DNA of 64,000 bases from a virus (IMGVR_UViG_3300027971_000028:69337-133336), one strand, 5' to 3'. Numbered from the stretch's first letter, positions 28,070 to 49,939 are shown. Notes: a model not told the origin generated them from the letters alone. Numbers and translations: made by a program.

Positions 28070-28549
28070 ATGAAACTTAAATGGACTAAAGAAAAAGATG
28101 CTCGCTTCTGGGATAAAGTCTATGTCGATGAAGATGAAGATTGCTGGCTTTGGTTTGCTGCTATAACTAGCAGTGGGTACGGGGCTTTTTCATATAGCAA
28201 AGGTAAATTAATAAGTGCTCATAAAATATCTTGGGCTATACATAAAAATAATGACACTCTATCCCCACGTAATCTACAAATTATGCATCTCTGTGACAAT
28301 AAAGTTTGCGTTAATCCTCATCATTTAGCCATGGGAACTGCTAGACAAAACAATCTAGATGCCTTTAAAAGAGGTCTAAATACCCCTATAAATAAGATAG
28401 TTGGTAGACCTAGTCAAAATCCTTACTGTAAACACGGACATGAACGTAGTAAAGAAAACACTATTATTAAAGATGGCTACAAACTTTGCAAACTTTGTAG
28501 ACAAGAAACCTACCGTAAATCCAAACTCAAAAAACACCCCTCCCCCTAA
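28070..28549 (+). CDS. HNH homing endonuclease
   Basis: CWLW..SGYG..AHK..MHLCDNKVCVNPHHL..N; C-terminal CKHGH..CKLC. Confidence 0.88.
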   Translation: MKLKWTKEKDARFWDKVYVDEDEDCWLWFAAITSSGYGAFSYSKGKLISAHKISWAIHKNNDTLSPRNLQIMHLCDNKVCVNPHHLAMGTARQNNLDAFKRGLNTPINKIVGRPSQNPYCKHGHERSKENTIIKDGYKLCKLCRQETYRKSKLKKHPSP

Positions 28550-28622
28550 TCTCATCCTCCTCCTCTGCCTCTTACGGAATGAGAGCGCGAAGAAACGTAT
28601 TTTCAAAGCAAGGTATAATTAA
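28537..28622 (+). repeat. Cassette module copy A (C/T tract + 23-bp core + TATAAT)
   Basis: Core ACGGAATGAGAGCGCGAAGAAAC at 28574-28596; TATAAT 17 bp later. Confidence 0.85.
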
Positions 28623-28642
28623 GCATCTAACAAAGGATTCCC

Positions 28643-29629
28643 GTGCCAATTCTTGGTTCTCAATCTTCAGGTGCAAAAGCAGCCCCAGCCACTCCAACTA
28701 TAGGAACACCAACTTTAACCAACTCAACAACAGTTTCAATTCCTTTCACCGCTCCTGATAGCAAACTTCCAATTACCTCTTACACAACTACCTCCTCTCC
28801 TTCTATTGCCTTAACTACGTCAGGTACTTCTACTCCACTAACTGTTACTGGTTCATTTGTTGCAGGAACTACTTATACATTTACAATTACTGCAACAAAC
28901 GCAAATGGAACTTCGTCTTCTTCAAGTACGTCTACTTCAGTTACTCCAGAAAAACCAGCGCCTAGTACAGTTTCAACAATGGGAGTAGGCGGTGGCGGTT
29001 GTGGTCAGTATACAAGTGCAGGCGGAGGCGGCGGAGGTGGTGGTGAAGTTTTAGTTAATAATAGTTTCTCTATAACTACAAATACTAACTATTCAATTAG
29101 TATTGGTGCAGGTGGAACAAATGCTCCAGTTGGTAATGGTCCACCTTTTGCATATAGCGGCGGCGCTAGTACAAGACTTGGTAGCAATGCCCGCGGCGGT
29201 ATTTATGCAACTTGGGCGTATCCAAATTATGGTCAAGGTGGAGCATCTGGTAATGGTAATGACGGCAATGGCGGTGGTGGTGGCGGTGCTGGTGCTGCTT
29301 CAACTAGTGCAACAGGTGGTGCAGGAATTACTTATAACTCGGTAGAATATGGCAAGGGCGGTAGTACTGGCGGTGGTTCAGGTGCTGGTGCAAGGACTGG
29401 AGTTAACACTGGTGGTGGTGGTGGCGGAAGACAAGGTAACGACCAATTTGGAATTCCTTCACCATATACCCCATGTTGGGGAAGAGATGGAGTGGTTATT
29501 GTGAGATATAGTGACACTTATAAGGATCCAACAATTGGTGGCGGACTAGTTTATACAAAAACTACTGATGGTTCTACTTTAGTTTTTACATTTACAGCTG
29601 GCTCCGATAATATAAGTTGGGCAGCATAA
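28643..29629 (+). CDS. FN3 + Gly-rich adhesin-like protein
   Basis: MPILGSQSS leader (GTG start), GTTYTFTITATNANG FN3, Gly-rich C-half. Confidence 0.75.
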   Translation: MPILGSQSSGAKAAPATPTIGTPTLTNSTTVSIPFTAPDSKLPITSYTTTSSPSIALTTSGTSTPLTVTGSFVAGTTYTFTITATNANGTSSSSSTSTSVTPEKPAPSTVSTMGVGGGGCGQYTSAGGGGGGGGEVLVNNSFSITTNTNYSISIGAGGTNAPVGNGPPFAYSGGASTRLGSNARGGIYATWAYPNYGQGGASGNGNDGNGGGGGGAGAASTSATGGAGITYNSVEYGKGGSTGGGSGAGARTGVNTGGGGGGRQGNDQFGIPSPYTPCWGRDGVVIVRYSDTYKDPTIGGGLVYTKTTDGSTLVFTFTAGSDNISWAA

Positions 29630-29961
29630 TGGCACGCTACGCTATCCTAGATGAAAACAATTTTGTTATAAATATAATTGTAGGACGAGAGCCAGGAGAG
29701 TTGGTAAACGGAGTTTCAGACTGGGAAACTTATTACGGTGTTCATTTAAATAAAATGTGTAAAGTAACTTCTTACCCCAACTGGGCAGTTATTGGTGGGA
29801 TATACGATACAGTGAACAATGTTTTTATCTCTCCACAACCTTTTCCTTCTTGGATCCGATCAGGTTCTTTCTGGGAAGCTCCAACTCCAAGACCAGAAGA
29901 TGACAAATTTTACACTTGGGATGAAGACTCCCTTAGTTGGATAGAGCAAACTCAACCTTAA
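29629..29961 (+). CDS. Small Trp-rich adhesin partner, paralogue 4
   Basis: MARYAILDE, FISPQPFPSW, WEAPTPRP, WDE..SW; TAATG overlap at 29627-29631. Confidence 0.75.
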   Translation: MARYAILDENNFVINIIVGREPGELVNGVSDWETYYGVHLNKMCKVTSYPNWAVIGGIYDTVNNVFISPQPFPSWIRSGSFWEAPTPRPEDDKFYTWDEDSLSWIEQTQP

Positions 29962-30049
29962 CCAGTTTTAAATTTACTACCTATATCTCCGATTCCTTTT
30001 AGGGAACGAGAGCGCGAAAAAACAGATTTCAAATTCACGATATAATTAG
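29962..30049 (+). repeat. Cassette module copy B
   Basis: Core AGGGAACGAGAGCGCGAAAAAAC at 30001-30023; TATAAT 17 bp later; AGGAG RBS. Confidence 0.8.
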
Positions 30050-30069
30050 TAAATACTTTTAGGAGCCTC

Positions 30070-31773
30070 ATGCCCATTCTAGGAACGCAAGCCTCACAAA
30101 ACACTAAATCATTCTTAGGTCTTGCTGTTGATTATTTAGTTGTTGCTGGTGGTGGTAGCGGAGGCTATTCTGGTGGCAATCCAAATGGTGGCGGTGGTGG
30201 TGGAGCAGGTGGTATGCGCTCTACAGTTACTGCTACTGGCGGTAGTGGTTCTTTAGAATCTGCTTTAACTTTATCTTTGAATACTAATCACACAGTTACG
30301 GTTGGTGCAGGTGGTGCTGGTGGTGTTGTTGTTGCCAATGGTAATAATTCAGTTTTTGCAACAATTACTTCAACTGGCGGTGGTAGCGGTGCAGATTGGA
30401 TTGCCCCAAACATAACACAAAATGGCAATGCTGGCGGTTCAGGTGGTGGCGGTACAGGCGGTTCAGGCTATACACCTCACGGCACAGGCGGTGCTGCTTC
30501 TCCTGCTGGTCAAGGTTTTGCAGGTGGTAATGCTTCAGGTACAGGTGGAAGTACAGCATCTGGCGGTGGTGGCGGTGGCGCTAGCGCAGTTGGAACTAAT
30601 GGCGCAAGTGGCGCAGGTGGTTCAGGTGGTGATGGTAGAGCAACATCAATAAGTGGTTCATCAGTTACTTACGCTGGCGGTGGTGCATCTACTGGAACAA
30701 GTAGTGGTGGTACTGCAGGAACAGGTGGCGGCGGAACTGTAGGAAGTGCTGGAACCGCTAATACAGGTGGCGGTGGAGGCGGTAGTTCTACAGGTAATAG
30801 TGGCAACGGCGGCTCAGGAGTTGTAATTGCACGCTACGCGGGAACTGAGCAAAAAGCATATGGCGGAACTGTAACAACATCTGGTGGAAATACAATTCAC
30901 ACATTTAATTCATCAAGTTCTTTTTATACAGGTTCTCCTAAAGCAAGTGGTGGAACAATTAGTTTTGCTAGTGGATATTTTTATCACGCATTTACATCGA
31001 CTGGATCCTTTACTCTTACTCCGTCCGAGGCTTTAACTGTTGATGTTTTGGTAATCGCAGGTGGTGGTGGTGCTGCTGGTTATATATCCTCAGGATACGC
31101 AGGGTCATCAGGTGGTGGCGCTGGAGGTTTATTAAATTTTGCATCTGAAAGTCTTACAGCAAATGCAGGATATACCGTAACTGTTGGCGCTGGTGGCGCT
31201 GGCGGAACAGCCAATACAAATAATGGTACTTCGGGTACTAATTCTCGATTTGGTAGTTTAACTACAGTAGTCGGTGGTGGTTACGGCGTAAATAGATATG
31301 TAGCAGGTGGTGCACTTGCTGGTGGTAACGGTGGTTCAGGCGGAGGAGGTGCTGGAACTGCTGGTGGTTCTCCAACATCAGGGCAAGGAAATAGCGGTGG
31401 AAGTGCGATAGCAGTCAATGGTACTGGTGGAGGCGGAGGTGCTGGCGCCGCTGGTGGAAACTCAACAACCGATAATGGTGGTAACGGTGGTGCTGGCATA
31501 AATACATATTCAACTTACGCAAGTGCAACCTCTACTGGAGTAAGTGGTTATTACGCAGGTGGCGGAGGCGGAGGAGTATACGCAAACGGAACTCCAGGTA
31601 CAGGCGGCTCAGGTGGCGGTGGCAGTGCTGGCAGTAACTCTGCTGGTGTATCAGGAACCGCGAACACAGGCGGTGGTGGTGGTGCGGCTAGTTATGCAAG
31701 CGGTATGGGAACTGTAAATGCAACAGGAGGCGCTGGTGGTAGCGGTTTAGTTATTGTTAGGTACGCAGTCTAA
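30070..31773 (+). CDS. Tandem two-domain Gly-rich adhesin-like protein
   Basis: MPILGTQASQNTKSF leader; two VAGGGG...GGSG.VI.RY domains. Confidence 0.78.
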   Translation: MPILGTQASQNTKSFLGLAVDYLVVAGGGSGGYSGGNPNGGGGGGAGGMRSTVTATGGSGSLESALTLSLNTNHTVTVGAGGAGGVVVANGNNSVFATITSTGGGSGADWIAPNITQNGNAGGSGGGGTGGSGYTPHGTGGAASPAGQGFAGGNASGTGGSTASGGGGGGASAVGTNGASGAGGSGGDGRATSISGSSVTYAGGGASTGTSSGGTAGTGGGGTVGSAGTANTGGGGGGSSTGNSGNGGSGVVIARYAGTEQKAYGGTVTTSGGNTIHTFNSSSSFYTGSPKASGGTISFASGYFYHAFTSTGSFTLTPSEALTVDVLVIAGGGGAAGYISSGYAGSSGGGAGGLLNFASESLTANAGYTVTVGAGGAGGTANTNNGTSGTNSRFGSLTTVVGGGYGVNRYVAGGALAGGNGGSGGGGAGTAGGSPTSGQGNSGGSAIAVNGTGGGGGAGAAGGNSTTDNGGNGGAGINTYSTYASATSTGVSGYYAGGGGGGVYANGTPGTGGSGGGGSAGSNSAGVSGTANTGGGGGAASYASGMGTVNATGGAGGSGLVIVRYAV

Positions 31774-31964
31774 TTTTAAAAAATGAAATATATAACTAAA
31801 AAATTAAATATAGACACCTTTTTATCTATACTTATAGCATCCTTATTTCTTATTCTTTTTTCAAACCAATCTATGCGTCAAATACAGGTTGATTTTTGGG
31901 TAAATAATCCAAATCTAAATCCAGCAAATGGTCACATTAATACAACTAGTTTTAGATAGATTTA

Positions 31965-33383: not shown

Positions 33384-33385
33384 AC

Positions 33386-33853: not shown

Positions 33854-33916
33854 TGATCTCCATTATGCTTGTACTTATTGTATCTATAGCATACTAGAGT
33901 TTTTATACTGTGGGTT

Positions 33917-34093: not shown

Positions 34094-36768
34094 GGCTTTC
34101 TTCTCCGTATTCTTGGGTCTCCCATTGCTCCACCAGCAGACCCACCACCACTTGGGGTGCTAGGTGCACTTCTAGTACTGCTTACTGCGTTGGCTGCGAC
34201 TCCTACTGCATTGATAGCAGCGTTACTAGCAATAATTGCTGATACAACCATTTTCTCTGACTCTTCTCTTTCTTCCTCGCTCATATCTGCTCCAATATTT
34301 AATACGGCCATAACTGCTTGACCTGGGTCATTAAATATTGCGCCAACAAATTCAGAAGGAGACTCCAACACCTGTAGCGCTGCAGCAACCTCTGCGATAA
34401 TTATAACATCGTTACCATTTTCATCTTTTCTAACTTCTACAGGGGTAGTTGCTGGAAGATCCTCGTATGTTAATCCAGCATCTTGTATGTTTTCTTTAGT
34501 AACTGCTTCTCCCTCTGCTGCTGTAATTAATGCTTCTGCCACTAAATCTCTCTCTGCTTCTGTAAATGTCCCATCTTCAGTCAATGCTTCTGATAAGTTA
34601 TTTACTTCAGAGTTTGTAATATCACCATCTGACATTAATGCATCTATGATCAACTCGGACTCGGCTGAAGATAGACCATTTTCAGATATAAGGCTATCTA
34701 CTAGTGCAGTCATTTCTTGATTAGTAACTACTCCATCTGAGGTAAGTGCATCTATAACCAGTGCTGCCTCTATTGCAGTTATCCCGCCATCTGTTAAATT
34801 AGAAGCCAAGTCAGATATTTCACTCACTGAAATGACCCCGTCGGATATCAATGCTTCTAATACTGCTTCAGCATCTGATGCACTAACTGTTCCGCTATTA
34901 ATCAAATCTTCAACAACATTTTGAACCTCTTCAGCAGTCATATCTGCTAGATCTGTAGGTACCTCATCTACTGGAATCTCTGTAGGAATCTCTGTAGGAA
35001 TCTCTGTAGGAATCTCTGTAGGAATCTCTGTAGGAATCTCTGTAGGAATCTCTGTAGGAATCTCTGTAGGAATCTCTGTAGGAATCTCTGTAAACGGATT
35101 GTAGACTGGCTCATAGGTTGATCCACCAATATTTAAACTTGCACTAGAAAAAGGTATTGAAACTATGATTTCTGAGTACTCACTTAATGGACCAGACCAG
35201 TTAGCAACTCTAACTGTGTAGGTAACACCTGGTGTTAAACCACTTAACTCGATGGATGCTGGAGCACCATCTGTATTTAATGTTTGACCAGCATATGGGT
35301 TTGCAGCGGTTAGATCTTGAGTAACAACTTGATAAAACCAAGTATTTGCCTCAAAACCAGTTGGCATTTCTGCCTCTATATACATAAATGTTCCAACTGC
35401 AGGTGCTGAAATTATTGGTGCTGGTGTAGGAATGTTGTTATTAATAGCAGATATTAGTTGACCTGATTTAGTGTTTAATGATGATTGAAGAGATGTTTTT
35501 GTTGACACCGCTGAATTCACGGTGTTAGTTAAAGATGTTGTATTGATTGCATTTATATTAGAAGTATTTGTAGTGTTTTGAGCAACTACTGGTGTAAGAC
35601 TTTGATTTAGTTGAGCAATTGTTGCGTTTGCTGCGTCTACTGCTGCTTGAACTGTTTCTGTATTTGGATCTACATAAGGTGTAAAGGCAGGACCTTGGCT
35701 TATTTGTCCAGCAAACCCAGTGCCAACATTGGTGTCTGTAATGCTATTAATAGTTCCATTTGTAGTTTCTCTATAATTAAATCTTGCTTGATTGGGTATT
35801 GGTCCAATAGCAGTAACATTTGCTTGCCAAGCGCCGTTGACTGGATTTACATCAGCATTAAATCTTACTTGAGCCATTTGCGTAGAGGCATCTTGTTGCG
35901 GAAATGGACGAAGATCCCAAGCAATATCTAAACTTGTTCCAGTAGTTGCATAAGTAATTCCTGTTCCTGTACTCCAGGTTGTCCAGTCCCATCCTGCTAT
36001 AGAGATAGAGGGTGCAGTGGGTGTGCTCCAGTAGTTGCTACCTTCATTTACTCCAAAGGTAATAGTTGCATTACTTCCAACATACACATTGTGGTAAAGC
36101 GTTCCGCCCATTAATAAATCAAATGGTAGGTTCATAATAACACCCACATCATCTACGTTAGATAAAACATTTGTACTCGTCCCAATAGTGGCTTGCAAAC
36201 TATTAACTGCTGTTTGAGCATTATCAATTGCAATATTGGCTTGAGTTAACTCAGTTTGGGCAGTTGCTTGTGCTGTAGATGCTGCTGTTTTTGCTGTAGT
36301 AACTTGAGATATTTCAGTTTGTGCTGTGGTAACAGTAACACTGTCTATTGCTGTTTGAGCAGTTGTAACAGTTGCCTTAGCATCTTGAACTATTTGTGAA
36401 CTTTGATCTATAGGAGTAGCAGTTAAATTTACAGCGTTTATTGTTGCTATTGCTGTATCTACCAAGGCTACACTTGTTTGCGCACTAGTTACTGATTGAG
36501 TAACTGTAGAAACTGCAGCCTGAGCCTGACTTAACTCAGTTTGGACATTTGTTACTACTGCTGTGGCTGTGTCTGTGGCTGCAACTGCTTGTTGAACTTC
36601 TGTAGTAGCAGTTGCAAGAGCCGTATTAACTGCCTGTTGAGCAGGGCTAACAACAACTTGTTCTTGGTTATCGGAAGCCTTGGCATGGTTTGGTGACATT
36701 ATTGAAAAAACTGTAATGCATAGGCTTATCCCAAGAAACAATAAAAATCTGCGTTTAAAATTAATCAA
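34090..36768 (-). CDS. Large exported/membrane-anchored protein (signal peptide, A/T/Q coiled coil, FN3, TEIP repeats, acidic repeats)
   Basis: Hydrophobic N-terminus, LSGLTPGVTYTVRVANW FN3, (TEIP)10, D/E-rich helical repeats, hydrophobic C-terminal segment. Confidence 0.75.
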   Translation of the reverse strand: MINFKRRFLLFLGISLCITVFSIMSPNHAKASDNQEQVVVSPAQQAVNTALATATTEVQQAVAATDTATAVVTNVQTELSQAQAAVSTVTQSVTSAQTSVALVDTAIATINAVNLTATPIDQSSQIVQDAKATVTTAQTAIDSVTVTTAQTEISQVTTAKTAASTAQATAQTELTQANIAIDNAQTAVNSLQATIGTSTNVLSNVDDVGVIMNLPFDLLMGGTLYHNVYVGSNATITFGVNEGSNYWSTPTAPSISIAGWDWTTWSTGTGITYATTGTSLDIAWDLRPFPQQDASTQMAQVRFNADVNPVNGAWQANVTAIGPIPNQARFNYRETTNGTINSITDTNVGTGFAGQISQGPAFTPYVDPNTETVQAAVDAANATIAQLNQSLTPVVAQNTTNTSNINAINTTSLTNTVNSAVSTKTSLQSSLNTKSGQLISAINNNIPTPAPIISAPAVGTFMYIEAEMPTGFEANTWFYQVVTQDLTAANPYAGQTLNTDGAPASIELSGLTPGVTYTVRVANWSGPLSEYSEIIVSIPFSSASLNIGGSTYEPVYNPFTEIPTEIPTEIPTEIPTEIPTEIPTEIPTEIPTEIPTEIPVDEVPTDLADMTAEEVQNVVEDLINSGTVSASDAEAVLEALISDGVISVSEISDLASNLTDGGITAIEAALVIDALTSDGVVTNQEMTALVDSLISENGLSSAESELIIDALMSDGDITNSEVNNLSEALTEDGTFTEAERDLVAEALITAAEGEAVTKENIQDAGLTYEDLPATTPVEVRKDENGNDVIIIAEVAAALQVLESPSEFVGAIFNDPGQAVMAVLNIGADMSEEEREESEKMVVSAIIASNAAINAVGVAANAVSSTRSAPSTPSGGGSAGGAMGDPRIRRRKP
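34973..35092. repeat. Perfect 12-bp tandem repeat x10
   Basis: GGAATCTCTGTA x10, encoding TEIP on the minus strand. Confidence 0.95.
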
Positions 36769-36850: not shown

Positions 36851-37501
36851 TTATTTCCTTAAATAAATATGTCGTACAGTTGATGGATACCACTTAACTC
36901 CGCCTAAAACTGTATTTATTCCTTCGCTGTTAAGTTTTTCTGCTATTGCTTTATAAGAAAGACCTAAAGTTCTCTCAGATAATATTCTCTCTGATATTGA
37001 TTTTTCAACTAAAGGCAGTGGTCCTAAGTCAACTCCCCATACTTTTTTATTATCACGTCTATCTTGATGAACATCTTTTTGGCGAAGTGAAATCATTCCT
37101 CTTTCCATCTCTGCCATGGCACTCATTATGGTTACTACAAACCGTCCCTGGTAGGTAGCAGTATCTAAACCAAGATCAAGAAGTGCTAGACGCCATCCGT
37201 ATTTATGTGAACGATCAACAATGCTAAGAAAGTCTCTAGTAGAACGAGCAAGTCTGTCAAGACGTGTGACGAACAAAGCCTCTGCTTCACCTTTATCAAG
37301 ACTCTCTAATGCAGCAGTTAATACAGGTCGCCCAGTTATGTTCTTACCTGAACGACCCTCTTCACGAAGCATTTCTACTTCATACCCCTGAGACTCCGCT
37401 GCATACTTAAGTTGCTTTTCTTGGGCATCTAGACTCACCCCATCGTCAACCTGCATCTGAGTAGATACTCTTGCATAGCAATAGGCTATTTTTTTATCCA
37501 C
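36851..37501 (-). CDS. Serine recombinase (resolvase/invertase catalytic domain + short C-terminal DNA-binding domain)
   Basis: YARVST catalytic Ser, GRSG..RP.L, RLDRLARS, AEMER, SYKAIAEKLN..W..STV. Confidence 0.9.
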   Translation of the reverse strand: MDKKIAYCYARVSTQMQVDDGVSLDAQEKQLKYAAESQGYEVEMLREEGRSGKNITGRPVLTAALESLDKGEAEALFVTRLDRLARSTRDFLSIVDRSHKYGWRLALLDLGLDTATYQGRFVVTIMSAMAEMERGMISLRQKDVHQDRRDNKKVWGVDLGPLPLVEKSISERILSERTLGLSYKAIAEKLNSEGINTVLGGVKWYPSTVRHIYLRK

Positions 37502-37734
37502 TAGGAGATTTCCTGATATCTATATATTTGTTTAAATAACAGCCCAACTGCTAACAGATCATCTAATTGACCTATAACTGGAATAAAATCTGGTATTAGA
37601 TCAATTGGAGACACTATATACAAAAGTAAAACTATTATGGATAGTTTTCCTTTTAGTGGAGTTTTTGAGGATTTAACCACTTTTATAATATCTTTAATAT
37701 TTAAAGGTAGTTTTTTAAACAAACTATTCTTCAT
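37501..37734 (-). CDS. DUF1232/YkvA-like membrane protein
   Basis: LLYIVSPIDLIPDFIPVIGQLDDL. Confidence 0.85.
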   Translation of the reverse strand: MKNSLFKKLPLNIKDIIKVVKSSKTPLKGKLSIIVLLLYIVSPIDLIPDFIPVIGQLDDLLAVGLLFKQIYRYQEIS

Positions 37735-37996
37735 CCTTTACTACTCTAAGATTCTTAGTTTTATTAAGATCTTTCATTAGTTTTTGATAAGTATCATCAA
37801 GTTTGCCTTTTTTAGGTTTTTTAATAAAAAAGCCAAGAAATGCTTTAATTAGAGAATATACAATTGCTAAGCCAAAAAGTACTACTAAAACAACTAACCC
37901 CCAGCCAACAATTGCTACCAGCATTTGAAATGCTATTTCGAAGGGTTGTTTCCAGTCTACGCTCATTACTGCCTCTTTTCTGGGGATTTTCCCCAC
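37724..37996 (-). CDS. Small membrane protein
   Basis: One long TM helix, Lys-rich tail; ATG at 37966 may be the real start. Confidence 0.65.
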   Translation of the reverse strand: MGKIPRKEAVMSVDWKQPFEIAFQMLVAIVGWGLVVLVVLFGLAIVYSLIKAFLGFFIKKPKKGKLDDTYQKLMKDLNKTKNLRVVKDEE

Positions 37997-38108
37997 AAAA
38001 AGACTATATCACATACAGACTTAGACTTAAAACTGTACGTCTTATGCCTTCCCTTAGAGGGATTTCATAAGTGTCACATTGGACGATTTTGAAGCGTTTT
38101 ACGCTTGT

Positions 38109-39863
38109 TTAGACTGCGTACCTTATTATAACGATACCTGAACCGCCTGCTGCACCTGCACAGCCATTACCTGAGCCAGCACCACCGCCACCACCAGTAT
38201 TTGGTAATCCTGGCTCCGCATAACTTTCAGCATTAGCATTAAATACAGCATCACCACCGCCGCCATTACCACCAGCACCTTGATTAGTTTTGTTTGGACC
38301 TCCAGTAGATGTTCCTGAGGCTCCACCGCCACCACCAGCGTACCAATAGGTTCCACTTACATTTTCGCCAGTTCCAGTCGCAACGCCCCAACTTGAGTAT
38401 GCAGATGAACCAGCACCGCCATTACCACCTGCAGTACCTGTTGAAGCTTGTCCAACTCCTCCAGCTCCACCGCCGCCACCTGCTCTATCTACTTGATTAC
38501 CACCAGCGCCACCAGCATAACCTTCTACCGGTGAATAACCGCCCGCGTTGCCACTTCCTCCAGTTCCAGAAATTCCATTTGCTCCACCACCTGAGCCACC
38601 TGAGCGACCTGAACCAGCACCATAAGAAGCAGCACCACCTCCACCAGTTGTACTTATTGTAGAAAATCCTGAGCCAGCAATAGAAGATGTAGTACCATCT
38701 CCTGCTTGTTGTCCATCAGTGTTGTTTCCAGCACCACCAGCGCCAACAGTAATTGTATAAGCAGTAGCGTTGTTGAATGACTGAGAAGTTAGTCCTCTAA
38801 GACCACCTGCTCCACCTCCACCACCAGTTCTTCCACCACCTCCGCCTCCTGCAATTACAAGAACTTCTGCTCCTGTTATGTTTTGACTTGGAGTAAATGT
38901 TTCTGACTTAGAAAAATAATGATACCAATAAGTACCATCTACACTAATTGAGCCACCCGTGGCTTTTGGAGAATTAGTTGCTGAAGCTGCAGACAAAATT
39001 CCTGTCGATGTGAATGTGTGAATTGTCTTGCCGTCTTGTGAAGTTACAGTTCCACCAGTTCTTACTTGTGGGCCTGCATAACTAATAATTACTAAACCTG
39101 AGCCACCACTTCCTCCGGTATAACTAGCACCATACTCACCGCCACCTCCGCCTCCACCGCGATTTTCAGTGCCTGATGTAGGAACATTACCAGTACTACC
39201 ACCACTTCCACCGCCACCAGTACCACCAGCACCTCCACTTTGTCCATTGCTACTTCCACCACCTCCGCCACCTGCGTAGGTAATTGATGAACCACTAATT
39301 GAAACTGCTACACCTGCGCCACCAGGAGCGCCTGCACCACTAATTTGTGTGCCAGCTGCCCCTGCTCCTCCGCCAGAGCCGCCGCCGTAAGCAATATTGT
39401 AACTTCCTGCGTAAGAGCTACCTCCGTTATATCCTTGATTAGCTACTCCAAAACCATACCTGCCATAACGAGCATGAGTAGCACCACCACCACTACCTCC
39501 GTGCATTGTGCCATTAACATCTACATCATTACCAACAGCGCCACCGCCGCCGCCACCGCCATAAGCAACAATGTTAGCGAATGATGAGTTTTCCCCTACA
39601 AAACCATTTCTGCTACCAGTACTAGCACCGGCGCCACCTGCACCTACTACTACAAGATAATTAACATTGTTCAAAATATCTATTTTTGACTCTAAAGAAC
39701 CGCCACCACCGCTTGCAGTTACAGTTGAACGTAAACCACCAGCACCTCCGCCACCTGCGGCGTTATGCCCACCGCCACCTCCGCCTGCAACAACAAGGTA
39801 GTCAACAGAGACAGATAAAAATGATTTAGTATTTTGAGATGCTGCTGTTCCTAGAATTGGCAT
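38109..39863 (-). CDS. Tandem two-domain Gly-rich adhesin-like protein
   Basis: MPILGTAASQNTKSF leader; two Gly-rich domains; ends IIRYAV. Confidence 0.78.
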   Translation of the reverse strand: MPILGTAASQNTKSFLSVSVDYLVVAGGGGGGHNAAGGGGAGGLRSTVTASGGGGSLESKIDILNNVNYLVVVGAGGAGASTGSRNGFVGENSSFANIVAYGGGGGGGAVGNDVDVNGTMHGGSGGGATHARYGRYGFGVANQGYNGGSSYAGSYNIAYGGGSGGGAGAAGTQISGAGAPGGAGVAVSISGSSITYAGGGGGGSSNGQSGGAGGTGGGGSGGSTGNVPTSGTENRGGGGGGGEYGASYTGGSGGSGLVIISYAGPQVRTGGTVTSQDGKTIHTFTSTGILSAASATNSPKATGGSISVDGTYWYHYFSKSETFTPSQNITGAEVLVIAGGGGGGRTGGGGGAGGLRGLTSQSFNNATAYTITVGAGGAGNNTDGQQAGDGTTSSIAGSGFSTISTTGGGGAASYGAGSGRSGGSGGGANGISGTGGSGNAGGYSPVEGYAGGAGGNQVDRAGGGGGAGGVGQASTGTAGGNGGAGSSAYSSWGVATGTGENVSGTYWYAGGGGGASGTSTGGPNKTNQGAGGNGGGGDAVFNANAESYAEPGLPNTGGGGGAGSGNGCAGAAGGSGIVIIRYAV

Positions 39864-39882
39864 ATTACTCCTTAAAGATAGT

Positions 39883-40002
39883 TAATTATACCTTGATTTT
39901 AAAAACTCGTTTTTTCGCGCTCTCGTTCCGTTAAAAGAAAAAGAGGAGGCAGCAGGGTTTAGGAGGGAAGGATTAGGAAGGAGTAGGGATTGAGGGGGGA
40001 GG
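39883..40002 (-). repeat. Cassette module copy C
   Basis: Core ACGGAACGAGAGCGCGAAAAAAC at 39909-39931; long C/T tract overlapping the upstream ORF end. Confidence 0.85.
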
Positions 40003-40318
40003 TTTTTTGTTTGGTTTTTTTAAGGAGTGTGTTGTAGTAATCAACCAGCGTTGTGATTTTCTCATTTGCTCTATCTACATCTCGCTTGTGAGCATCTTGC
40101 TCACGGATTAGTTGAAGAGAGTTACTAGCAATAATATCGCTGGTGTATTTAATGCAGTAGTTAGATTGACCGATGGTCATCTTTCTTTGGTCAGCAAGAT
40201 TTGAAGATTGAACTAGCAAGGCTGTTATTAGAAGAACTATAAATATAGATAAAGCCTGAATTGTTATTTTTGGGTTTATACTAATTCTTTTAGACTTTTG
40301 TTTATCTACTGATGGCAT
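39959..40318 (-). CDS. Hypothetical membrane protein
   Basis: N-terminal TM helix then coiled coil; C-terminus encoded by the module C/T tract. Confidence 0.6.
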   Translation of the reverse strand: MPSVDKQKSKRISINPKITIQALSIFIVLLITALLVQSSNLADQRKMTIGQSNYCIKYTSDIIASNSLQLIREQDAHKRDVDRANEKITTLVDYYNTLLKKTKQKTSPLNPYSFLILPS

Positions 40319-41949
40319 TAGACTGCGTACCTTACGATCACGATTCCTGAGCCACCAGCACCACCTGCACCGCCGTCGCCACCACCTCCACCACCGCCAC
40401 CGCCACGATTTGCTGTGCCGTTGCTTCCAGTTTGTCCACCGTTGCCGCTATTACCACTGCCAGCGCTACCTGGCGTTACGCCGTAACTACCACCACCTCC
40501 GCCGCCGCCTCCAGCATATGTAATTGACGAACCACTAATGCTATTTGATAAACCATTACCACCATTGCCTGAATAGGAACCAGAACCTCCACCACCTGCT
40601 GCACCTGCACCACCACCACCGCCAGCAGATGTACCAATACCTTGACCACCATTATTTCCTTGACCACTTGGCGAGGCTAAACCTAAATTAGAATTGCCAC
40701 CACCCCAGCCTCCTCCACCACCAGAGCCACCGTTATTTGCACCGCCGCCAGGTCCAGACCCACCACCACCACCTGTAGATGTAACTGTTGAAAATATAGA
40801 ATTACTGCCACTTGATCCATTACCATAACTACCGACGCCGCCACCCGATCCACCAGCACCAACTGTTACTGTGTAGGCCTGTGCAGTTAAAGATAATTGA
40901 GAACCACCAATAGAAGTTCTATATCCACCTGCTCCTCCTCCGCCACCATTACTTCCACCTCCTCCACCTCCAGCAACTACTAAGTAGTCAGCATATAATG
41001 CTTCAGTTGGGGTAAATGAGAATGTTCCTGTTGATAAAAATGTATGAACAAAATAATTAGTTCCACCAGATGAGTAAAAACTAATATCTCCACCTGTTGC
41101 TTTAGCAAGAGCAGTAATAAAATTACCTGAGGATGTAAATGTATGAATTGTATTTCCACCAGATGTTGTGACTGTTCCGCCAGTTGCTTTTTGCTCAGTG
41201 CCTGCGTAGCGAGCAATTACAATTCCTGAGCCGCCTGCGCCCCCGGCGGGAGAACCACTTTGTGAACTATTACCACCGCCACCTCCGCCAGTATTTGCAG
41301 TTCCAGAACTACTTGGAGCATTGCCACCTCCACCTAAGCCACCAACTCCGTTAAGTCCATTTTGTCCTCCACCGCCACCACCCGCGTAGTAAGAAGATGA
41401 ACCTGTTATTGAGTTTGCTTTACCAATTCCTCCGTTAGGTGCATTACTTCCAGTAGAAGTTACTCCTGCAGCACCTGCTCCGCCGCCGCCACCACCTGCA
41501 CCACCACCAGTTCTACCATTACCACCTACATTACCAAAACCTAAACCTGAATATGTATTTTGAGTTGTTGCACCGCCGCCGCCAACACCACCATACTCAC
41601 CGCCGCCTCCGCCTGAACCACCAGAAATACCGTTTACTCCACCGCCACTCCAAGTACCTCCACCGCCACCACCAGTTGCAGTATAAATTGAACCAAATGT
41701 TGAATCAATTCCACTATTCCCCCTATCTCCATTACCTACACCACCAGCGCCACCAGCGCCTACGCTTATTGAATAACTTGTTAAGAAATCTAATCCATAT
41801 TCAGTAGAGTAAACATATCCACCTGCTCCTCCTCCGCCGCCGTTATACCATGCACCTCCACCGCCACCACCTGCAACTACAAGTAAATCAACTTTTAGAT
41901 TAAGAAAAGATTTACTGTTTTGTGAGGCTTGCGTTCCTAGAATTGGCAT
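40318..41949 (-). CDS. Tandem two-domain Gly-rich adhesin-like protein
   Basis: MPILGTQASQNSKSF leader; ARYAGTEQKA linker shared with 30070..31773. Confidence 0.78.
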   Translation of the reverse strand: MPILGTQASQNSKSFLNLKVDLLVVAGGGGGGAWYNGGGGGAGGYVYSTEYGLDFLTSYSISVGAGGAGGVGNGDRGNSGIDSTFGSIYTATGGGGGGTWSGGGVNGISGGSGGGGGEYGGVGGGGATTQNTYSGLGFGNVGGNGRTGGGAGGGGGGAGAAGVTSTGSNAPNGGIGKANSITGSSSYYAGGGGGGQNGLNGVGGLGGGGNAPSSSGTANTGGGGGGNSSQSGSPAGGAGGSGIVIARYAGTEQKATGGTVTTSGGNTIHTFTSSGNFITALAKATGGDISFYSSGGTNYFVHTFLSTGTFSFTPTEALYADYLVVAGGGGGGSNGGGGGAGGYRTSIGGSQLSLTAQAYTVTVGAGGSGGGVGSYGNGSSGSNSIFSTVTSTGGGGGSGPGGGANNGGSGGGGGWGGGNSNLGLASPSGQGNNGGQGIGTSAGGGGGAGAAGGGGSGSYSGNGGNGLSNSISGSSITYAGGGGGGGGSYGVTPGSAGSGNSGNGGQTGSNGTANRGGGGGGGGGDGGAGGAGGSGIVIVRYAV

Positions 41950-41968
41950 GAAACTCCTTTAATTATGC

Positions 41969-42053
41969 TTAATTATATCGCAGTTTGAAAACTCGTTTTT
42001 TCGCGCTCTCGTTCCGTTATAGGAGGAAGAGGCAAAGATAAAAAGGGGGAGGG
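41969..42053 (-). repeat. Cassette module copy D
   Basis: Core at 41995-42017; 41988-42019 is identical (32 bp) to 39902-39933. Confidence 0.85.
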
Positions 42054-42938
42054 TTAAAAGGTTATGGTTCCTGTAGCGTTAAATTGGTAGTAAACATAAT
42101 TACCATAACTACCAGATACTGGATCACCAGATGTAGACACTGCTGCTCTTGAAGTACGAATAATTACTACACCACTACCTCCGCCACCACTTGCTGGACC
42201 GCAGTAATGCAAACCATTTCCACCGCCGCCAGTATTCGCTGTGCCACCGCCGCCATCATAAGTATCACCAGTAGGAGAGTTTTGAGCGCTTCCTCCGCCG
42301 CCGCCTGCTCTACCAACAGATGTTCCAGTTATAGATGATGAAACACCTACTCCACCATCGCCACCTTTATTGGTTCCAGAACTACCTCCAGTAGCGTTAC
42401 CTCCCACTCCACCTGCTCCACCTCCGCCACCTTGATTATAATTACCAAAAGGATTGACTGGGTTTCCACCATTTGTATTTGTACCACCACCATAACCTTG
42501 TCCTGAAGTACCAGCGCCACCTGAATAAGTTCCAGATGTACCACCTGCGGCACCGCTACCTGAACCACCAGTAAAACCAGCACCAACAGCAACTGAACTA
42601 CTTCTACCTCTAGCGCCACCAAGTGATGTTATGGTTGTTATACCAGAGCCAGAAAAAGATGAATTATTACCTTGAGTACCATTACTAGTCATTGTGCTAG
42701 TCCCACCAGCGCCAACTGTTGCTGTATAAGTAACTCCTGCAATTAAAGTTATCATTGATTCAGCACCTGCGCCACCACCACTTGATTCACCAACTACTGA
42801 AGATCTATAGCCACCTGCTCCAGCGCCAGCGCCACCGCAAAAACCACCGCCTCCTCCGCCTGCAATAACAATGTATTCAACTTGGACATCTAGAAATGAT
42901 TTGCTGTTTTGTGAAGCGGAAGTTCCAAGAAGAGGCAT
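42054..42938 (-). CDS. Gly-rich adhesin-like protein
   Basis: MPLLGTSASQNSKSF leader, VEYIVIAGGGGGG, GGSGVVIIR. Confidence 0.75.
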   Translation of the reverse strand: MPLLGTSASQNSKSFLDVQVEYIVIAGGGGGGFCGGAGAGAGGYRSSVVGESSGGGAGAESMITLIAGVTYTATVGAGGTSTMTSNGTQGNNSSFSGSGITTITSLGGARGRSSSVAVGAGFTGGSGSGAAGGTSGTYSGGAGTSGQGYGGGTNTNGGNPVNPFGNYNQGGGGGAGGVGGNATGGSSGTNKGGDGGVGVSSSITGTSVGRAGGGGGSAQNSPTGDTYDGGGGTANTGGGGNGLHYCGPASGGGGSGVVIIRTSRAAVSTSGDPVSGSYGNYVYYQFNATGTITF

Positions 42939-42957
42939 TTAAATCCTTTGTTTAGAT

Positions 42958-43022
42958 AGTTAATTATACCTTGCTTTAAAAACGTGTTTCTTCGCGCTCT
43001 CATTCCGTACTAAGAAAGAGAA
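42958..43022 (-). repeat. Cassette module copy E
   Basis: Core at 42986-43008 identical to copy A; AAAGCAAGGTATAATTAA also shared with A. Confidence 0.85.
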
Positions 43023-43249
43023 TCGGGATAATTTTCAGGGTTATCGATAATTAAAAGGTTAGGAAGGTTGGGAGGGATGGAGTGTCCAATTTTTTTGTGG
43101 GCGCTAAGGTGGTCAATCATTTCTTGCGTTGACTCTGCACAGAAGGAAGCCTCTAACTCGTCACCAAAATAACACATTGCGCACACTACGCCGCGACCAG
43201 GAATTGAATACACGTAAACATCCGACTCGCTGAACTTAGAATAAATCAT
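43010..43249 (-). CDS. Hypothetical protein (Cys/His, possibly Zn-binding)
   Basis: SDVYVY..VCAMC..MIDHL.AH..GH. Confidence 0.6.
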   Translation of the reverse strand: MIYSKFSESDVYVYSIPGRGVVCAMCYFGDELEASFCAESTQEMIDHLSAHKKIGHSIPPNLPNLLIIDNPENYPDSLS

Positions 43250-46228: not shown

Positions 46229-46322
46229 ATAGTATCAGGGCCTTTACAAAAAGTGCAAACTGGGTATCTTCCTGACTTTTTAAGCGTTTGACAAAGGGTA
46301 TCTAGGCTTATACCCTATCTAC

Positions 46323-46442
46323 ATGGCTAAAAAAGATAAGTTTTATGACGAGGCAGCAGGTCCTACCTTATTTAGAATCTTTTTAAGAGCCTTGGTAATT
46401 GCAGTAATTATGTGGTTAATTCAAAGAATTGGTAACTCTTAA
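46323..46442 (+). CDS. Small membrane protein (39 aa)
   Basis: MAKKDKFYDEAAGPTLFRIFLRALVIAVIMWLIQRIGNS; TTGACA and an AGGGTAT-N8-ATACCCT palindrome upstream. Confidence 0.5.
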   Translation: MAKKDKFYDEAAGPTLFRIFLRALVIAVIMWLIQRIGNS

Positions 46443-46447
46443 GAGTA

Positions 46448-46648
46448 TTACTCTTTAGATTCTCCGTTATATAAAGAAACAGCATCAACAAGATTAGTAA
46501 CTCTACTTGTTACGTATCCGCCTTCTTTATCTAACTTATCTTTAGCAGCCTGCTCATTCTCTGCAAGAACTTGAACAACCATAGTTACTGCATAGGTATA
46601 GCACTTAGTTGAATCTTTTTCCTTTGTCTTTGTATCTTGCTTTGCCAT
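46448..46648 (-). CDS. Hypothetical protein
   Basis: 66-aa ORF, GAGGGA RBS, behind module F. Confidence 0.65.
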   Translation of the reverse strand: MAKQDTKTKEKDSTKCYTYAVTMVVQVLAENEQAAKDKLDKEGGYVTSRVTNLVDAVSLYNGESKE

Positions 46649-46683
46649 TTGAGTCCCTCTTTCATAGGAGTTATTACTTGAAG

Positions 46684-46760
46684 GATAGCAGATAAAGTGC
46701 GATTTTTCAGGCGCCCTGTCCGTGATAGGAGGCAGAGGAAGAGATTAGGAGGGGGAGGGG
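46684..46760 (-). repeat. Cassette module copy F (degenerate core)
   Basis: ACGGACAGGGCGCCTGAAAAATC at 46701-46723; C/T tract closely matches copy A. Confidence 0.7.
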
Positions 46761-46806
46761 TGCATGCTTTTTGAGGCGTCTTTACGAGACATAAAAACGT
46801 TGGTTA

Positions 46807-47709
46807 TTAAATAGTAGTATATCCGTAATAAATGATCTGCGATGCGCCACTGGTATTAGCAATTGTAAAGTCAAACCTATTACTACTTGTACCCGAGTAT
46901 GTAGCGTCTGTGCTAATAGTACCTGCTACTCCTCTAATCTGATTAGGTATGGCAGTTAATGAAATAGGACTTCCGCCGCCAGTGTAGTTCCAAGCATATT
47001 GATATCCTATTGCTGCTACATTAGCATTTGACACACTGGCTGTAGCGTTCCAAACTATAATACCGTTAGGTATATTTCCCTTGACCCACATGGTGTATGT
47101 GCCACCACTTGGAACTTCAAAATTGTAGGTGTTAGTGCCTGTGGCAATAGTCCATGAGCCTGTAGTAGCAGCTGAACCTGTAGCACCAGTAGGTCCAGTA
47201 TTTCCAGTAACACTTGCACCTGTTACACCTGTATTACCAGTTGCTCCCGTTGCACCAGTCTGACCAGTTGCACCAGTGTTACCAGTGCCAGTTGGACCAG
47301 TTGCACCTGTACTTCCTATATTACCAGTTGCTCCTGTTGCACCTGTCTGCCCTGTTTCACCTAACGCACTGCTCGACGACTCCAGCCAAAATCCGTCGTA
47401 GTACACAAACATAGTTGCAGAGTTAGGATCAAACCAAACGTCACCTGTTTCAGCACCTGTTGGAGCTGTAGTTTCAGCGGTAGAGAATACTCCGTTGTCT
47501 CCTGTTGTGCCCGTTGCTCCTGTGTTGCCAGTTGGACCGTTTGTTCCAGTTACGCCTGTTGCACCGTTTGTTCCAGTTGCACCAGTTGCGCCTGTGCTAC
47601 CGACCGCACCTGTTGGTCCAAGCCATACCGTGCCATTCCAACGCCAAGTAATTGATCCGGATGAGAACGTTTGATTTAACGATGGGGAATCCGGGAAGTT
47701 AATTGGCAT
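46807..47709 (-). CDS. Short collagen-like fibre (chimeric)
   Basis: [16 protein letters not shown]-module, GXT runs, GDVWFDP..YYDGFW module, distinct C-terminal head. Confidence 0.8.
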
Positions 47710-47728
47710 AAGGCTCCTTAAAAGATAG

Positions 47729-47802
47729 TCAATTATATCTTGAATTTAAAATGCGTTTTTTCGCGCTCTCTTTCCGTAAGAGGAAGCGGAAGAGAGGGGG
47801 GG
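47729..47802 (-). repeat. Cassette module copy G
   Basis: Core ACGGAAAGAGAGCGCGAAAAAAC at 47755-47777; TATAAT 17 bp later. Confidence 0.85.
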
Positions 47803-48300
47803 TTAGGAGTTTTTGATTCCGTATAGGTGAAAGGTTGAACTGGTTTCAAAATTTCCACTAAGTTTTACAGAAGTTATTGCTGAAGTATTAGACCATAAAC
47901 CAGCGGCTAACATAGTATACGCTTCATTATTTGCGTTATTTTCTGAAACAGAATCAATTGAAATTGATTTATGTTGTGAACCAGTATAGTTTGTAATATA
48001 AATTTGAACATTTCCAAATGTGTTTGCAGTAGCAGATGATTTTGGCAAACCTACTAAAACTACATTGCCACTGTAAGACCCATTAGTTACTGAACCATTT
48101 TCTCCCCAAACCCATCTGCCCTGTAAATTAGCGCTGCTTCCATTTATTTCTGAAATTTCTGAGTCAGGTGAACCAGTTGTGCTACGGGCAGACATTAAAA
48201 TACATAAATGAGTATAGGTTGCAGGTATTGAAGTAAATGTAACACTCGCGGCTGAACTACCTAAAGTATTAGCCTGTATCAAAGTAAATGTATTTGCCAT
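47803..48300 (-). CDS. Triad 2 subunit C
   Basis: VTFTSIPATYTHL, FGNVQIYI.NY, SVSENNA, FHLYGIKNS. Confidence 0.72.
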   Translation of the reverse strand: MANTFTLIQANTLGSSAASVTFTSIPATYTHLCILMSARSTTGSPDSEISEINGSSANLQGRWVWGENGSVTNGSYSGNVVLVGLPKSSATANTFGNVQIYITNYTGSQHKSISIDSVSENNANNEAYTMLAAGLWSNTSAITSVKLSGNFETSSTFHLYGIKNS

Positions 48301-48800
48301 TATGCAGTCAAAATTCCGTAGAGTGAAAAGGTTGAGCCTGAATCAAAATTTGAAGCACTTGTAGGAGTTAATACTATAGAAGTAATTGCCGCTGTATTTC
48401 TCCAAACACCTGCATAAGCAATTGTTATTGTTGAGGCAGCACTACCTCTTGATAAAACATTTTTGTAAGTTGTAGTGTTTGAATAATTTTGAAAGTGAGT
48501 TATGCCAGCAGCATACTCTGTTGCGTGATGTCGTGCAATAAGAACTCCACTTGAATTATTGGTACTACCTGAAGACGCACTTGACCCAGTGCCATAAACA
48601 TATACTGTTGAATAATTACTACCTGTGTCAGAATTAAATTGACACGTTATATCATTGGTGTCTGCAGAGATATCACTTGATGCTGATGTTATTAAAATTA
48701 AATCAGTATAACTTCCGCTAATACTAGAGAAGGTAATGCTTGAGGCAGGACTACTCAAAGTATTTGTCGCTATTGGTTCGTATGTTCCGCCTGCAGCCAT
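48300..48800 (-). CDS. Triad 2 subunit B
   Basis: YEPIATNTL, ITFSSI, NYSNTTTYK, WRNTAAITS, FSLYGI. Confidence 0.72.
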   Translation of the reverse strand: MAAGGTYEPIATNTLSSPASSITFSSISGSYTDLILITSASSDISADTNDITCQFNSDTGSNYSTVYVYGTGSSASSGSTNNSSGVLIARHHATEYAAGITHFQNYSNTTTYKNVLSRGSAASTITIAYAGVWRNTAAITSIVLTPTSASNFDSGSTFSLYGILTA

Positions 48801-48802
48801 TG

Positions 48803-49405
48803 TTATACCCCCTTAATTCCGTAGAGAGCAAGTTGTGAGTACTGTTTGAAAGGTGATGAAGTACCAAGTGCTTCTATAGTTATAGAGGTTATAGCACTGG
48901 TGCTTGTCCATAGGCCAGACTTAAATGACACGCTTGAAGCGTTGTAACCATTAATTGTATTTGCATTTGTACTTATTCCTTCTATAGTTCTAAGAACTTT
49001 ATTTTTATTTGTAGAGCTATAATTCAAAATTTCTGTAATGAATGTACCAAAAAATGGTGCAGCAGCAACGCCTGGTATGGCGCTTAAATAAAGGAAATCT
49101 CCTAACCCCTCTGTAGCAGCATATGCACGAGGGGGAGAATCGTTAATACTGGATCCTAAAATATGGTCTCTATAGTTTGAGCCTGTATCACTGTTAAATC
49201 TAAGAGTTCCATATCCACTTGGTTGTGGACCTGGTCTACTACCTTGCAATATCCCTCTTATCTGCAGATGCATAAAAGTTTGTGGTATTGAACTAAAGGT
49301 AATAGTTGATTGACCACCCGCGCCTACTGTTGTTGTTGCAATAGACTCGAAGGAGCCAAAGGATTTGCCTGAAAACTGCGAAGCAATCGTACCTAGAATA
49401 TTCAC
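48803..49405 (-). CDS. Triad 2 subunit A
   Basis: MNILGTIASQ leader, FSSIPQTFMHLQIRG, ALYGIKG. Confidence 0.72.
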   Translation of the reverse strand: MNILGTIASQFSGKSFGSFESIATTTVGAGGQSTITFSSIPQTFMHLQIRGILQGSRPGPQPSGYGTLRFNSDTGSNYRDHILGSSINDSPPRAYAATEGLGDFLYLSAIPGVAAAPFFGTFITEILNYSSTNKNKVLRTIEGISTNANTINGYNASSVSFKSGLWTSTSAITSITIEALGTSSPFKQYSQLALYGIKGV

Positions 49406-49427
49406 GCGGCTCCTAATGAAAGATAGT

Positions 49428-49519
49428 TAATTGTATCGCAGAAAGTAAAAGTTTATTTTTTCGCGCTCCCGTTCCGTAAGAGGAAGAAGAGACGGAAAAA
49501 AGGGGAGGGAGGGGGGGGA
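49428..49519 (-). repeat. Cassette module copy H
   Basis: Core ACGGAACGGGAGCGCGAAAAAAT at 49455-49477; TACAAT; G4/G3/G8 runs on the + strand. Confidence 0.8.
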
Positions 49520-49855
49520 TTAAGGTCCGAATGTCCAAGCGTTAACTGACCCTTTTTTTGCTTTTGCATAAAGAAAATCTTTTTCTGCTTGTATGCCTAC
49601 AATTCTAAATGTCATTTGATTTATGTTTGAAAGATTAATAATTCCTTTACCGTTGCGAACTAAAGAAAATTTAATGTTTTCATATGCATTATCTTCTGAT
49701 GTAGCAAATGTTCCAAACGTTATGTCTCCTGGAGCAAGTGGGTGAGACCCTAACATTAAGTATTGTCTTAATTCTTTTTCATCTTCTTTTTTCATCTCTA
49801 AACCCCTATCACTTCCTACGCTAATCATTTCGGTCATGGGCAGAAGTATACACAT
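49520..49855 (-). CDS. Hypothetical protein flanked by modules H and I
   Basis: 111-aa ORF; true start uncertain. Confidence 0.55.
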   Translation of the reverse strand: MCILLPMTEMISVGSDRGLEMKKEDEKELRQYLMLGSHPLAPGDITFGTFATSEDNAYENIKFSLVRNGKGIINLSNINQMTFRIVGIQAEKDFLYAKAKKGSVNAWTFGP

Positions 49856-49939
49856 ATCTTGTAAAAATGCGTTTTTTCGCGCTCTGTGTCCGTGATAAGA
49901 ATCGGCGGAAAGGATTAGAGGGGGGAGGTAGGGATAAGG
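49845..49939 (-). repeat. Cassette module copy I
   Basis: Core ACGGACACAGAGCGCGAAAAAAC at 49871-49893. Confidence 0.8.

Follow-up and report, generated by a model that had tools for sequence, protein, structure and literature searches.

A repeated intergenic module at apparent sites of accessory gene exchange in freshwater actinobacterial phages

The right-hand 64 kb of the 133,336-bp IMG/VR virus record IMGVR_UViG_3300027971_000028 (this whole stretch is hereafter called the window, and positions refer to it unless genome positions are indicated) contains a repeated intergenic module composed of a C/T-rich tract, a conserved core and a -10 box, located just ahead of accessory genes. The question raised by this locus is whether the module is simply a late promoter or also a joint at which genes are exchanged; an earlier note had proposed an integron-like array for capturing, expressing and swapping receptor-binding genes. 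The viral record was judged complete. By its large terminase (76% identity), the phage is closest to Actinomycetia phage DSL-LC01, which is a lake phage assembled from metagenomes (PMC10611076), and next closest to Microbacterium phages; the genome carries three WhiB-like genes, consistent with an actinobacterial host. The phage is a siphovirus-like, freshwater, actinobacterial one.

We propose that the module is probably a portable cassette with promoter and insulator functions that doubles as a linker for homologous recombination, and that it works in a PeSL-like way without being a member of the PeSL family described below. We infer its promoter, insulator and binding-site roles, and the comparative evidence that genes are swapped at the modules is strong.

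Nine modules in three variable regions

The window was searched with the 23-base core, allowing up to three mismatches and using 100 shuffled sequences as control. This search retrieved eight of the nine copies announced in the earlier note, each with at most two mismatches, whereas the shuffled sequences gave none. It took an nhmmer profile to retrieve the degenerate ninth copy (F, 46701-46723, minus strand; ACGGACAGGGCGCCTGAAAAATC). Applied to the complete genome, this profile found exactly nine copies, all between 28.5 and 49.9 kb of the window, and a broader profile built from 124 copies found the same nine. The modules and a tenth promoter of the same type are as follows.

Module A, 28534..28645, plus strand: C/T tract 28534-28573, core 28574-28596, -10 TATAAT 28614-28619, GTG 28643
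Module B, 29961..30072, plus strand: core 30001-30023 (AGGGAAC variant), -10 30041-30046, ATG 30070
Module C, 39861..40003, minus strand: C/T tract 39932-40003, core 39909-39931, -10 39885-39890, ATG 39863
Module D, 41947..42064, minus strand: C/T tract 42018-42064, core 41995-42017, -10 41972-41977, ATG 41949
Module E, 42936..43050, minus strand: core 42986-43008, -10 42963-42968, ATG 42938; its upstream flank is a 79-aa gene
Module F, 46646..46766, minus strand: C/T tract 46724-46766, core 46701-46723 (GGCGCC variant), TATCCT, ATG 46648
Module G, 47707..47802, minus strand: core 47755-47777, -10 47732-47737, ATG 47709, collagen-like fibre gene
Module H, 49403..49533, minus strand: C/T tract 49478-49533, core 49455-49477, TACAAT 49430-49435, GTG 49405
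Module I, 49835..49946, minus strand: C/T tract 49894-49946, core 49871-49893, TATACT 49845-49850, ATG 49837
Tenth promoter of the same type, 51534..51594, minus strand: TATAATTA 51558-51565, Shine-Dalgarno sequence, GTG 51536, N-terminus VNILGT

Seven modules (A, B, C, D, E, G and H) have the common layout previously described, in which a C/T-rich tract that starts after, or overlaps, the upstream stop codon is followed by the core, a 17-18 nt spacer, TATAATTA, AGGA(G) and a start codon; H deviates within this layout by a 19-nt spacer and TACAAT. The layout does not extend to F, where a 13-nt spacer leads to TATCCT, nor to I, which looks leaderless, with TATACT followed by ATG 7 nt later. The tenth promoter has neither C/T tract nor core; it heads its array, and its upstream neighbour is divergently transcribed. 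Copies C and D have 32 identical bases in common, as the earlier note said. Copies A and E are indeed inverted, 14,412 bp apart and identical in their 23-bp cores, but "near-identical" was an overstatement because their identity is 84.7% over 85 bp. Modules are present in both orientations in this genome.

The genes behind A to E encode the viral Gly_rich_2 domain (PF21722, phrog_2295), associated in A with a fn3 domain; G precedes the gene of a collagen-like tail-fibre protein and H the first of three small related genes. The previous count of seven modules out of nine feeding adhesin, collagen or triad genes is therefore right (five Gly_rich_2 genes, one collagen-like tail-fibre gene and one opener of a three-gene set). 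"Adhesin-like" is a fair inference for the Gly_rich_2 genes, because in the ESM Atlas the domain is viral and often fused to fn3, Ig-like or cadherin domains.

Conservation of the core and gene content of relatives

Scans of IMG/VR and metagenomes found the module in many lake contigs. Every longer module-bearing contig examined has backbone genes in common with the phage (primase, terminase, recombinase and ribonucleotide reductase), and within each related contig the copies are clustered and point in the same direction, with 2-6 copies per 1-9 kb. Among deposited phage records, blastn with the module gave no match, and tblastn with a Gly-rich protein gave none either, probably owing to the low-complexity filter; no module was found in DSL-LC01, the nearest named relative, with the 124-copy profile included. 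Two other origins were tried and rejected: a host element, as a 20-base core gave only two matches, both at chance level, in 185,579 bacterial and archaeal genomes (596 Gb), and a known RNA family, as an Rfam search with the module gave no match at E up to 1. The module is specific to one family of freshwater actinobacterial phages.

Altogether 124 distinct copies were gathered, with a sample bias in that finding copies in other contigs needed exact matches; 45 of the 124 escape this bias because they do not contain the search pattern. Over the 124 copies, the conserved part is about 35 bp long and reads C.T.T.ACGGAAnGrGAGCGCGAAAAAAC, three variable bases, then TTTT. In the 45-copy subset, information reaches 1.2-2 bits per position from C(-6).T.T.ACGGA via GAGCGCGAAAAAAC to TTTT (+26 to +29), with little information in the flanks and with spacers and coding sequences randomised. 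Conservation is strongly asymmetric, and all 124 copies are co-oriented with the downstream gene. Judged from these alignments, the core is under selection. A link to methylation or restriction through its invariant GCGC was considered and dropped, as GCGC is not avoided in the genome (243 observed against 225 expected). Other tetranucleotides are strongly avoided genome-wide, namely CCGG (25 observed, 225 expected), AGCT (123 observed, 484 expected), GGCC (73 observed) and CGCG (93 observed), which suggests restriction avoidance.

The nine copies fall in three hypervariable regions, one of which is adjoined by a recombinase gene:

Hypervariable region a, 28068..31952, no strand: His-Me/HNH homing endonuclease and cassettes A and B; absent from relative G001
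Hypervariable region b, 37498..42912, no strand: cassettes C, D and E; against relatives G001 and G004, conservation is limited to the modules and an island of 88 bp
Hypervariable region c, 46761..51594, no strand: cassettes G, H and I and a second three-gene set; non-homologous to G001 except for the modules
Small serine recombinase, 36851..37501, minus strand: 216 aa, adjoins region b, conserved backbone

Compared with G001, G003 and G004, whose backbones are 85-96% identical to this one (85-91% for G001), the modules are the sole conserved islands of the three regions. With G001, homology in 37498-42912 and 46761-51594 is limited to module-sized islands, and two boundaries lie 25 nt into gene E and at 46760, the upstream edge of module F. 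With G003, an identity of 95.6% runs through the primase gene, the HNH gene and module A, and replacement is limited to the bodies of these two cassettes' genes: homology breaks off 9 nt past the start of gene A and 85 nt past that of gene B, and is regained at the B stop codon. Proteins of downstream genes at corresponding positions are just 30-50% identical. The gene content of close relatives differs exactly at the modules, which is where the earlier note had suggested looking for breaks in gene order. Moreover, the whole-genome profile scan confines the module to accessory regions: contrary to both observations that would have refuted the earlier note, the motif does not precede core late genes and the order of cassettes is not invariant among relatives. 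It is not a genome-wide late promoter.

Lake metagenomes extend this picture. In 17 contigs the conserved flank of the E position leads into 15 different downstream sequence clusters; for the C flank there are 6 such clusters and for the A flank 5, and two different E-position alleles occur in a single sample (Ga0214921). Pairwise identity is about 0.9 through the core (to +23) and random by about +60, just ahead of the start codon; alignment shows the alleles as a patchwork of different spacers, leaders and N-terminal types, and in one allele (L128) an unrelated leaderless gene begins directly after the core. Relative to the core start, breakpoints were found at -37, +23, +23 to +66, +77 and +155, and this scatter fits homologous exchange over a common element and not a fixed crossover. 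An inversion between A and E was rejected as the source of the variation: at positions A and E, G003 and G004 do have the "other" type of gene, but the difference is confined to the gene bodies (protein identity 34-42%), and the neighbouring genes are unchanged.

The open reading frames (ORFs) downstream of modules in relatives belong to 28 families. About 65% of them have a common MPILGT N-terminus, and about 35% of the 113 come from some 22 other families of small genes, homing endonucleases included; the idea that the module is specific to receptor-binding genes therefore does not hold.

Promoter features, possible working and rival explanations

The TAnnnT box behind the core most often lies 17 nt from it (66 copies); other distances are 13 nt (14 copies), 18 nt (6 copies) and, in several leaderless ones, 15 or 20-22 nt. 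A -10 is present behind every well-preserved copy. In 73 modules a Shine-Dalgarno sequence is present and the start codon lies 42-49 nt past the core, and in 26 the TAnnnT lies 5-8 nt ahead of the ATG, a leaderless layout of a kind common in Actinobacteria. These placements are good indirect evidence that TAnnnT is a real -10. With a 17-nt spacer, the -35 slot is occupied by AAAAAC or AGAAAC, as the earlier note had it (GCGAAA can also be read), and by no consensus -35, and a sigma-70 consensus scan reported none of the module promoters. Without a core, the -10 gaTAYAATWA recurs at 40657, 56997 and 74048 of the genome and, in front of the second three-gene set, at 51565 of the window. In the structural region, before the window, a GC-rich hairpin (genome 40610-40665; GGGGAGCC, an 8-nt loop, GGCTCCCC) ends 3 nt before the -10 TACAATAA; it is a classic terminator-promoter composite, unlike the modules. 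An unrelated second repeat family, GCAAAAAGTAAAAA, has 13 copies, at genome 1.8-20 kb (before the window) and at window 63216, with AAGTTGTTT about 30 nt upstream in about six of them; it is restricted to the small genes of the early region and probably signals a further class of promoters.

Upstream of the core, 50 nt contain 38% C and 6.8% G (genome: 20% C and 20.5% G), a C:G ratio of 5.6. Extreme pyrimidine tracts, defined by at least 34 pyrimidines in 40 nt and at least 14 C, number 8 in the genome, and 6 of the 8 adjoin cores. Single-sequence folds pair the end of the tract with GGAAnGAGAG, forming CT/GA stems of -9 to -18 kcal/mol with weak z-scores. A mini-hairpin of GCGCG-A6-CGC followed by a T-run was also considered and rejected, its pairing not being maintained across copies.

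In our favoured explanation, the elements would act in the order in which they stand. Behind the stop codon of a co-directional upstream gene, the C-rich, G-poor tract would be a Rho-loading or insulator zone ending upstream transcription; the asymmetric core of about 35 bp would be a putative binding site for a phage factor, replacing the missing -35; and a -10 of the sigma-A type (TAnnnT) would lead into a short Shine-Dalgarno leader or a leaderless start. Having its own module, each accessory gene would be an independent transcription unit. As the core is near-identical everywhere and is flanked by backbone or by the downstream gene, comparison of relatives shows the modules to be joining points for homologous recombination, which attaches unrelated genes to conserved flanks. 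The outcome is arrays of exchangeable genes, mostly Gly_rich_2 or collagen fibre-like and starting with MPILGT.

Several known systems resemble parts of this scheme. PeSL are composite promoter and stem-loop cassettes that extend from stop codon to start codon in T4-type phages, with consensus sigma-70 -35/-10 boxes, an AT-rich upstream region and a demonstrated stem-loop terminator (PMC2839356, PMC4122927). Like PeSL, the module is a short composite intergenic cassette between an upstream stop and a downstream start, is concentrated in hyperplastic regions (9 of 9 copies in the three variable regions), usually precedes accessory genes or genes without known function, and lies at the boundaries of insertions, deletions and replacements between close relatives, as homologous-recombination linkers do. 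Unlike PeSL, it has no -35 box (the -10 being present, as TATAATTA or TAnnnT) and no conserved stem-loop, but a C-rich tract followed by a core of about 35 bp that does not vary, and it occurs in an actinobacterial siphovirus-like phage of another lineage. The analogy with PeSL drawn in the earlier note therefore stands for the working at genome level, that is, hyperplastic location and indel boundaries, and fails for two defining features, -35 and stem-loop. Cluster K mycobacteriophages have start-associated sequences (SAS), 13 bp long and covering the ribosome-binding region within a few bases of the start codon, and ESAS, an inverted repeat of 17 bp (PMC3203893). These are likewise repeated motifs in one orientation just upstream of many actinobacteriophage genes, conserved across a phage cluster, whereas the core of the module is upstream of the -10, asymmetric and coincident with breaks in gene order. 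As to the promoter itself, the module recalls the middle promoters of T4, which appropriate sigma: in both, a good -10 would go with a box that is peculiar to the phage and stands in for the -35. Such a make-up would account for the failure of the consensus sigma-70 scan at the module sites. The MotA box of T4 has 9 bp at a fixed distance from the -10, whereas here about 35 bp stand 13-22 nt from it, and no activator or co-activator was found.

Besides the sample bias mentioned above, several points weigh against the favoured explanation. The promoter and terminator activities of the modules are putative, and the varying distance from core to -10 (13, 15, 17, 18 and 20-22 nt) weakens the strict idea of a -35 substitute. 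Genome searches found no sigma factor; no phage single-subunit RNA polymerase was found either, a weak negative as the control matched in no genome. The three WhiB-like genes are present also in DSL-LC01, which is without modules, and their co-occurrence with modules is uninformative for this reason. We therefore name no candidate binding protein. On the RNA side, RNAalifold on 40 diverse copies predicts 0 pairs and no conserved hairpin, CT/GA pairing is 74% in register and 55-72% in shifted registers, and a consensus scan found no intrinsic terminator at any module. A PeSL-type stem-loop terminator is thus missing, and a conserved hairpin or intrinsic terminator was rejected as a defined structure, as there is no consensus fold and the shifted-register controls score nearly as high.

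A more ambitious variant, which we regard as unlikely, is that the core is the site of a dedicated putative phage protein that both activates the genes and targets recombination or excision, the arrays forming a programmed plug-in system; such a protein would replace the -35 contact, for example via a WhiB-like partner of sigma-A. That the core is the crossover site of the small serine recombinase, in a programmed shufflon or an integron-like or Min-like system for fibre genes, seems to us very unlikely. The recombinase adjoins variable region b, matches Resolvase (E 1e-34) and phrog_125, DNA invertase (E 5e-38), and is made of the Resolvase domain and the first 48 positions of the "Recombinase" domain; the genome has modules in both orientations, and AAAAAAC, two bases, (G/A)TTTTT presumably resembles the centre of hix and gix sites. 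Nevertheless, the protein (216-229 aa across relatives, DSL-LC01 included) is encoded at this backbone position in the module-free DSL-LC01 too, and G001 has modules in a single orientation only. The element is strongly asymmetric and thus has no second half-site. Its two central bases differ between copies (GT, AG, GA, GA, AC, GC, GC, AA, GC), no inverted pair in this genome having the same ones; the breakpoints at -37, +23, +77 and +155 leave no single fixed point for a recombinase crossover, and G001 and G002 have identical module spacing. Mu Gin, P1 Cin and p15B Min also have a serine recombinase gene beside variable fibre-like genes and an A-tract/T-tract centre in the repeated element, but they act on 26-bp dyad sites in coding sequence with an identical central dinucleotide and swap C-termini by inversion, whereas the module sites are asymmetric and intergenic with differing central bases, and the recombinase also occurs without modules. 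The serine recombinase is probably not linked to the modules. An integron works with a tyrosine integrase, its attC sites are folded and lie at the 3' ends of the cassettes, and a single common promoter serves them. Here too, single-gene units are parted by a repeated element and gene content varies between relatives. However, the tyrosine integrase domain PF00589 had no match in the complete genome (controls positive), there is no attC-like conserved fold, each cassette has its own promoter and the crossover points vary. As, in addition, the adjoining serine recombinase is present in DSL-LC01 without modules and the module of relatives also stands ahead of non-fibre genes, the label "integron-like" is not supported.

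A further reading gives the module no special part in gene exchange: by common descent, it could be merely the inherited promoter of a duplicated MPILGT-type gene family, which would account for that N-terminus in about 65% of downstream ORFs and for the homology among B, C, D and E, which extends 80-260 nt beyond the core into coding sequence. We find this improbable: some 22 unrelated families also stand behind the core, with different -10 spacings and leader types, the core hardly varies although the spacer and coding sequence next to it are randomised, the L128 allele has an unrelated gene attached right at the core, and the tenth promoter, which serves the same gene type, has no core. Equally improbable in our view is an element acting in read-through transcripts, whose tract would load Rho and whose core would pause, process or antiterminate, the promoter being a separate unit. 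The position of the tract behind stop codons, its C:G ratio and the variable distance from core to -10 fit such an RNA-level element, as does the absence of tract and core from the sole promoter of the type that has no co-directional upstream gene (51534..51594). Against it stand the lack of conserved secondary structure and of an Rfam match, the junction between the recombinase and an 892-aa gene, where a -10 is present and the tract absent, and the fact that an invariant linear sequence of 35 bp would be unusual as a pause or termination signal. Rho-dependent insulation may act at the RNA level, and we retain it as part of the favoured model. Finally, the least probable reading in our estimate is that the core is an extracytoplasmic function (ECF) promoter of the SigH/SigE kind, used by a stress sigma factor of the host and placed in tandem with the -10 of the sigma-A type. 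ECF promoters have the geometry GGAAy, 18 bases, GTT, and the core has a conserved GGAA (2-5) and (G/A)TT (25-27) with exactly 18 nt between them. This reading fits the geometry but not the pattern of conservation, which is higher in the 18-nt "spacer" than in either of the proposed boxes, -35 and -10. In addition, 78 of 124 copies have A at position 25 instead of the expected G, and the motif is absent from bacterial genomes, actinobacteria included.

Neighbouring genes and biological meaning

The N-terminal peptide M(P/N)ILGT.AS was observed at starts 28643, 30070, 39863, 41949, 42938, 49405 and 51536. It is common to proteins with differing bodies (Gly_rich_2 proteins, fn3 fusions and the first gene product of each three-gene set) and looks like a common docking or sorting peptide. 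The His-Me finger/HNH homing endonuclease gene (28070-28549) forms the left edge of the 3.9-kb block that is absent from G001; HNH and GIY-YIG-like genes also stand behind modules in relatives, and cuts by these endonucleases may stimulate exchange near modules. The 79-aa protein upstream of module E (43010-43249) is conserved and has the motifs CxxC and STQEMxDHLxxH. In relatives it is always found among modules, as the conserved flank of the E position, and stands behind a module in G006; it could be a regulator. Pfam and PHROG gave no match for this protein, and no function for the flanking proteins of 66, 105, 113 and 119 aa. Small ORFs of family phrog_7759 (99-114 aa, start MA.YA.IDE), present at 29617-29961 and in the G001 region (L061), recur just downstream of Gly-rich genes in both genomes, and their product may be a chaperone or partner protein. 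The 892-aa gene, whose product has a signal-peptide-like N-terminus, contains at 34973-35092 ten perfect tandem copies of a 12-bp unit (GGAATCTCTGTA).

Actinobacteria of fresh water rank among the most abundant bacteria of lakes, and hardly any of their phages has been cultured. For these phages, the module provides a searchable marker of the sites where fibre-like genes are exchanged, genes that probably determine host range, and one such locus alone has 15 alleles across lake metagenomes. The module carries the idea behind PeSL, a regulatory cassette that is also a recombination linker, beyond T4-type myoviruses into a phage lineage unrelated to them, where the logic of the sequence differs (a long invariant core, and neither -35 nor hairpin). 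It also points to a putative sequence-specific factor in actinophage transcription. If the unlikely variant with a dedicated protein were true, abundant lake phages would have arrays for receptor-binding-type genes, and not a passive by-product of homology.

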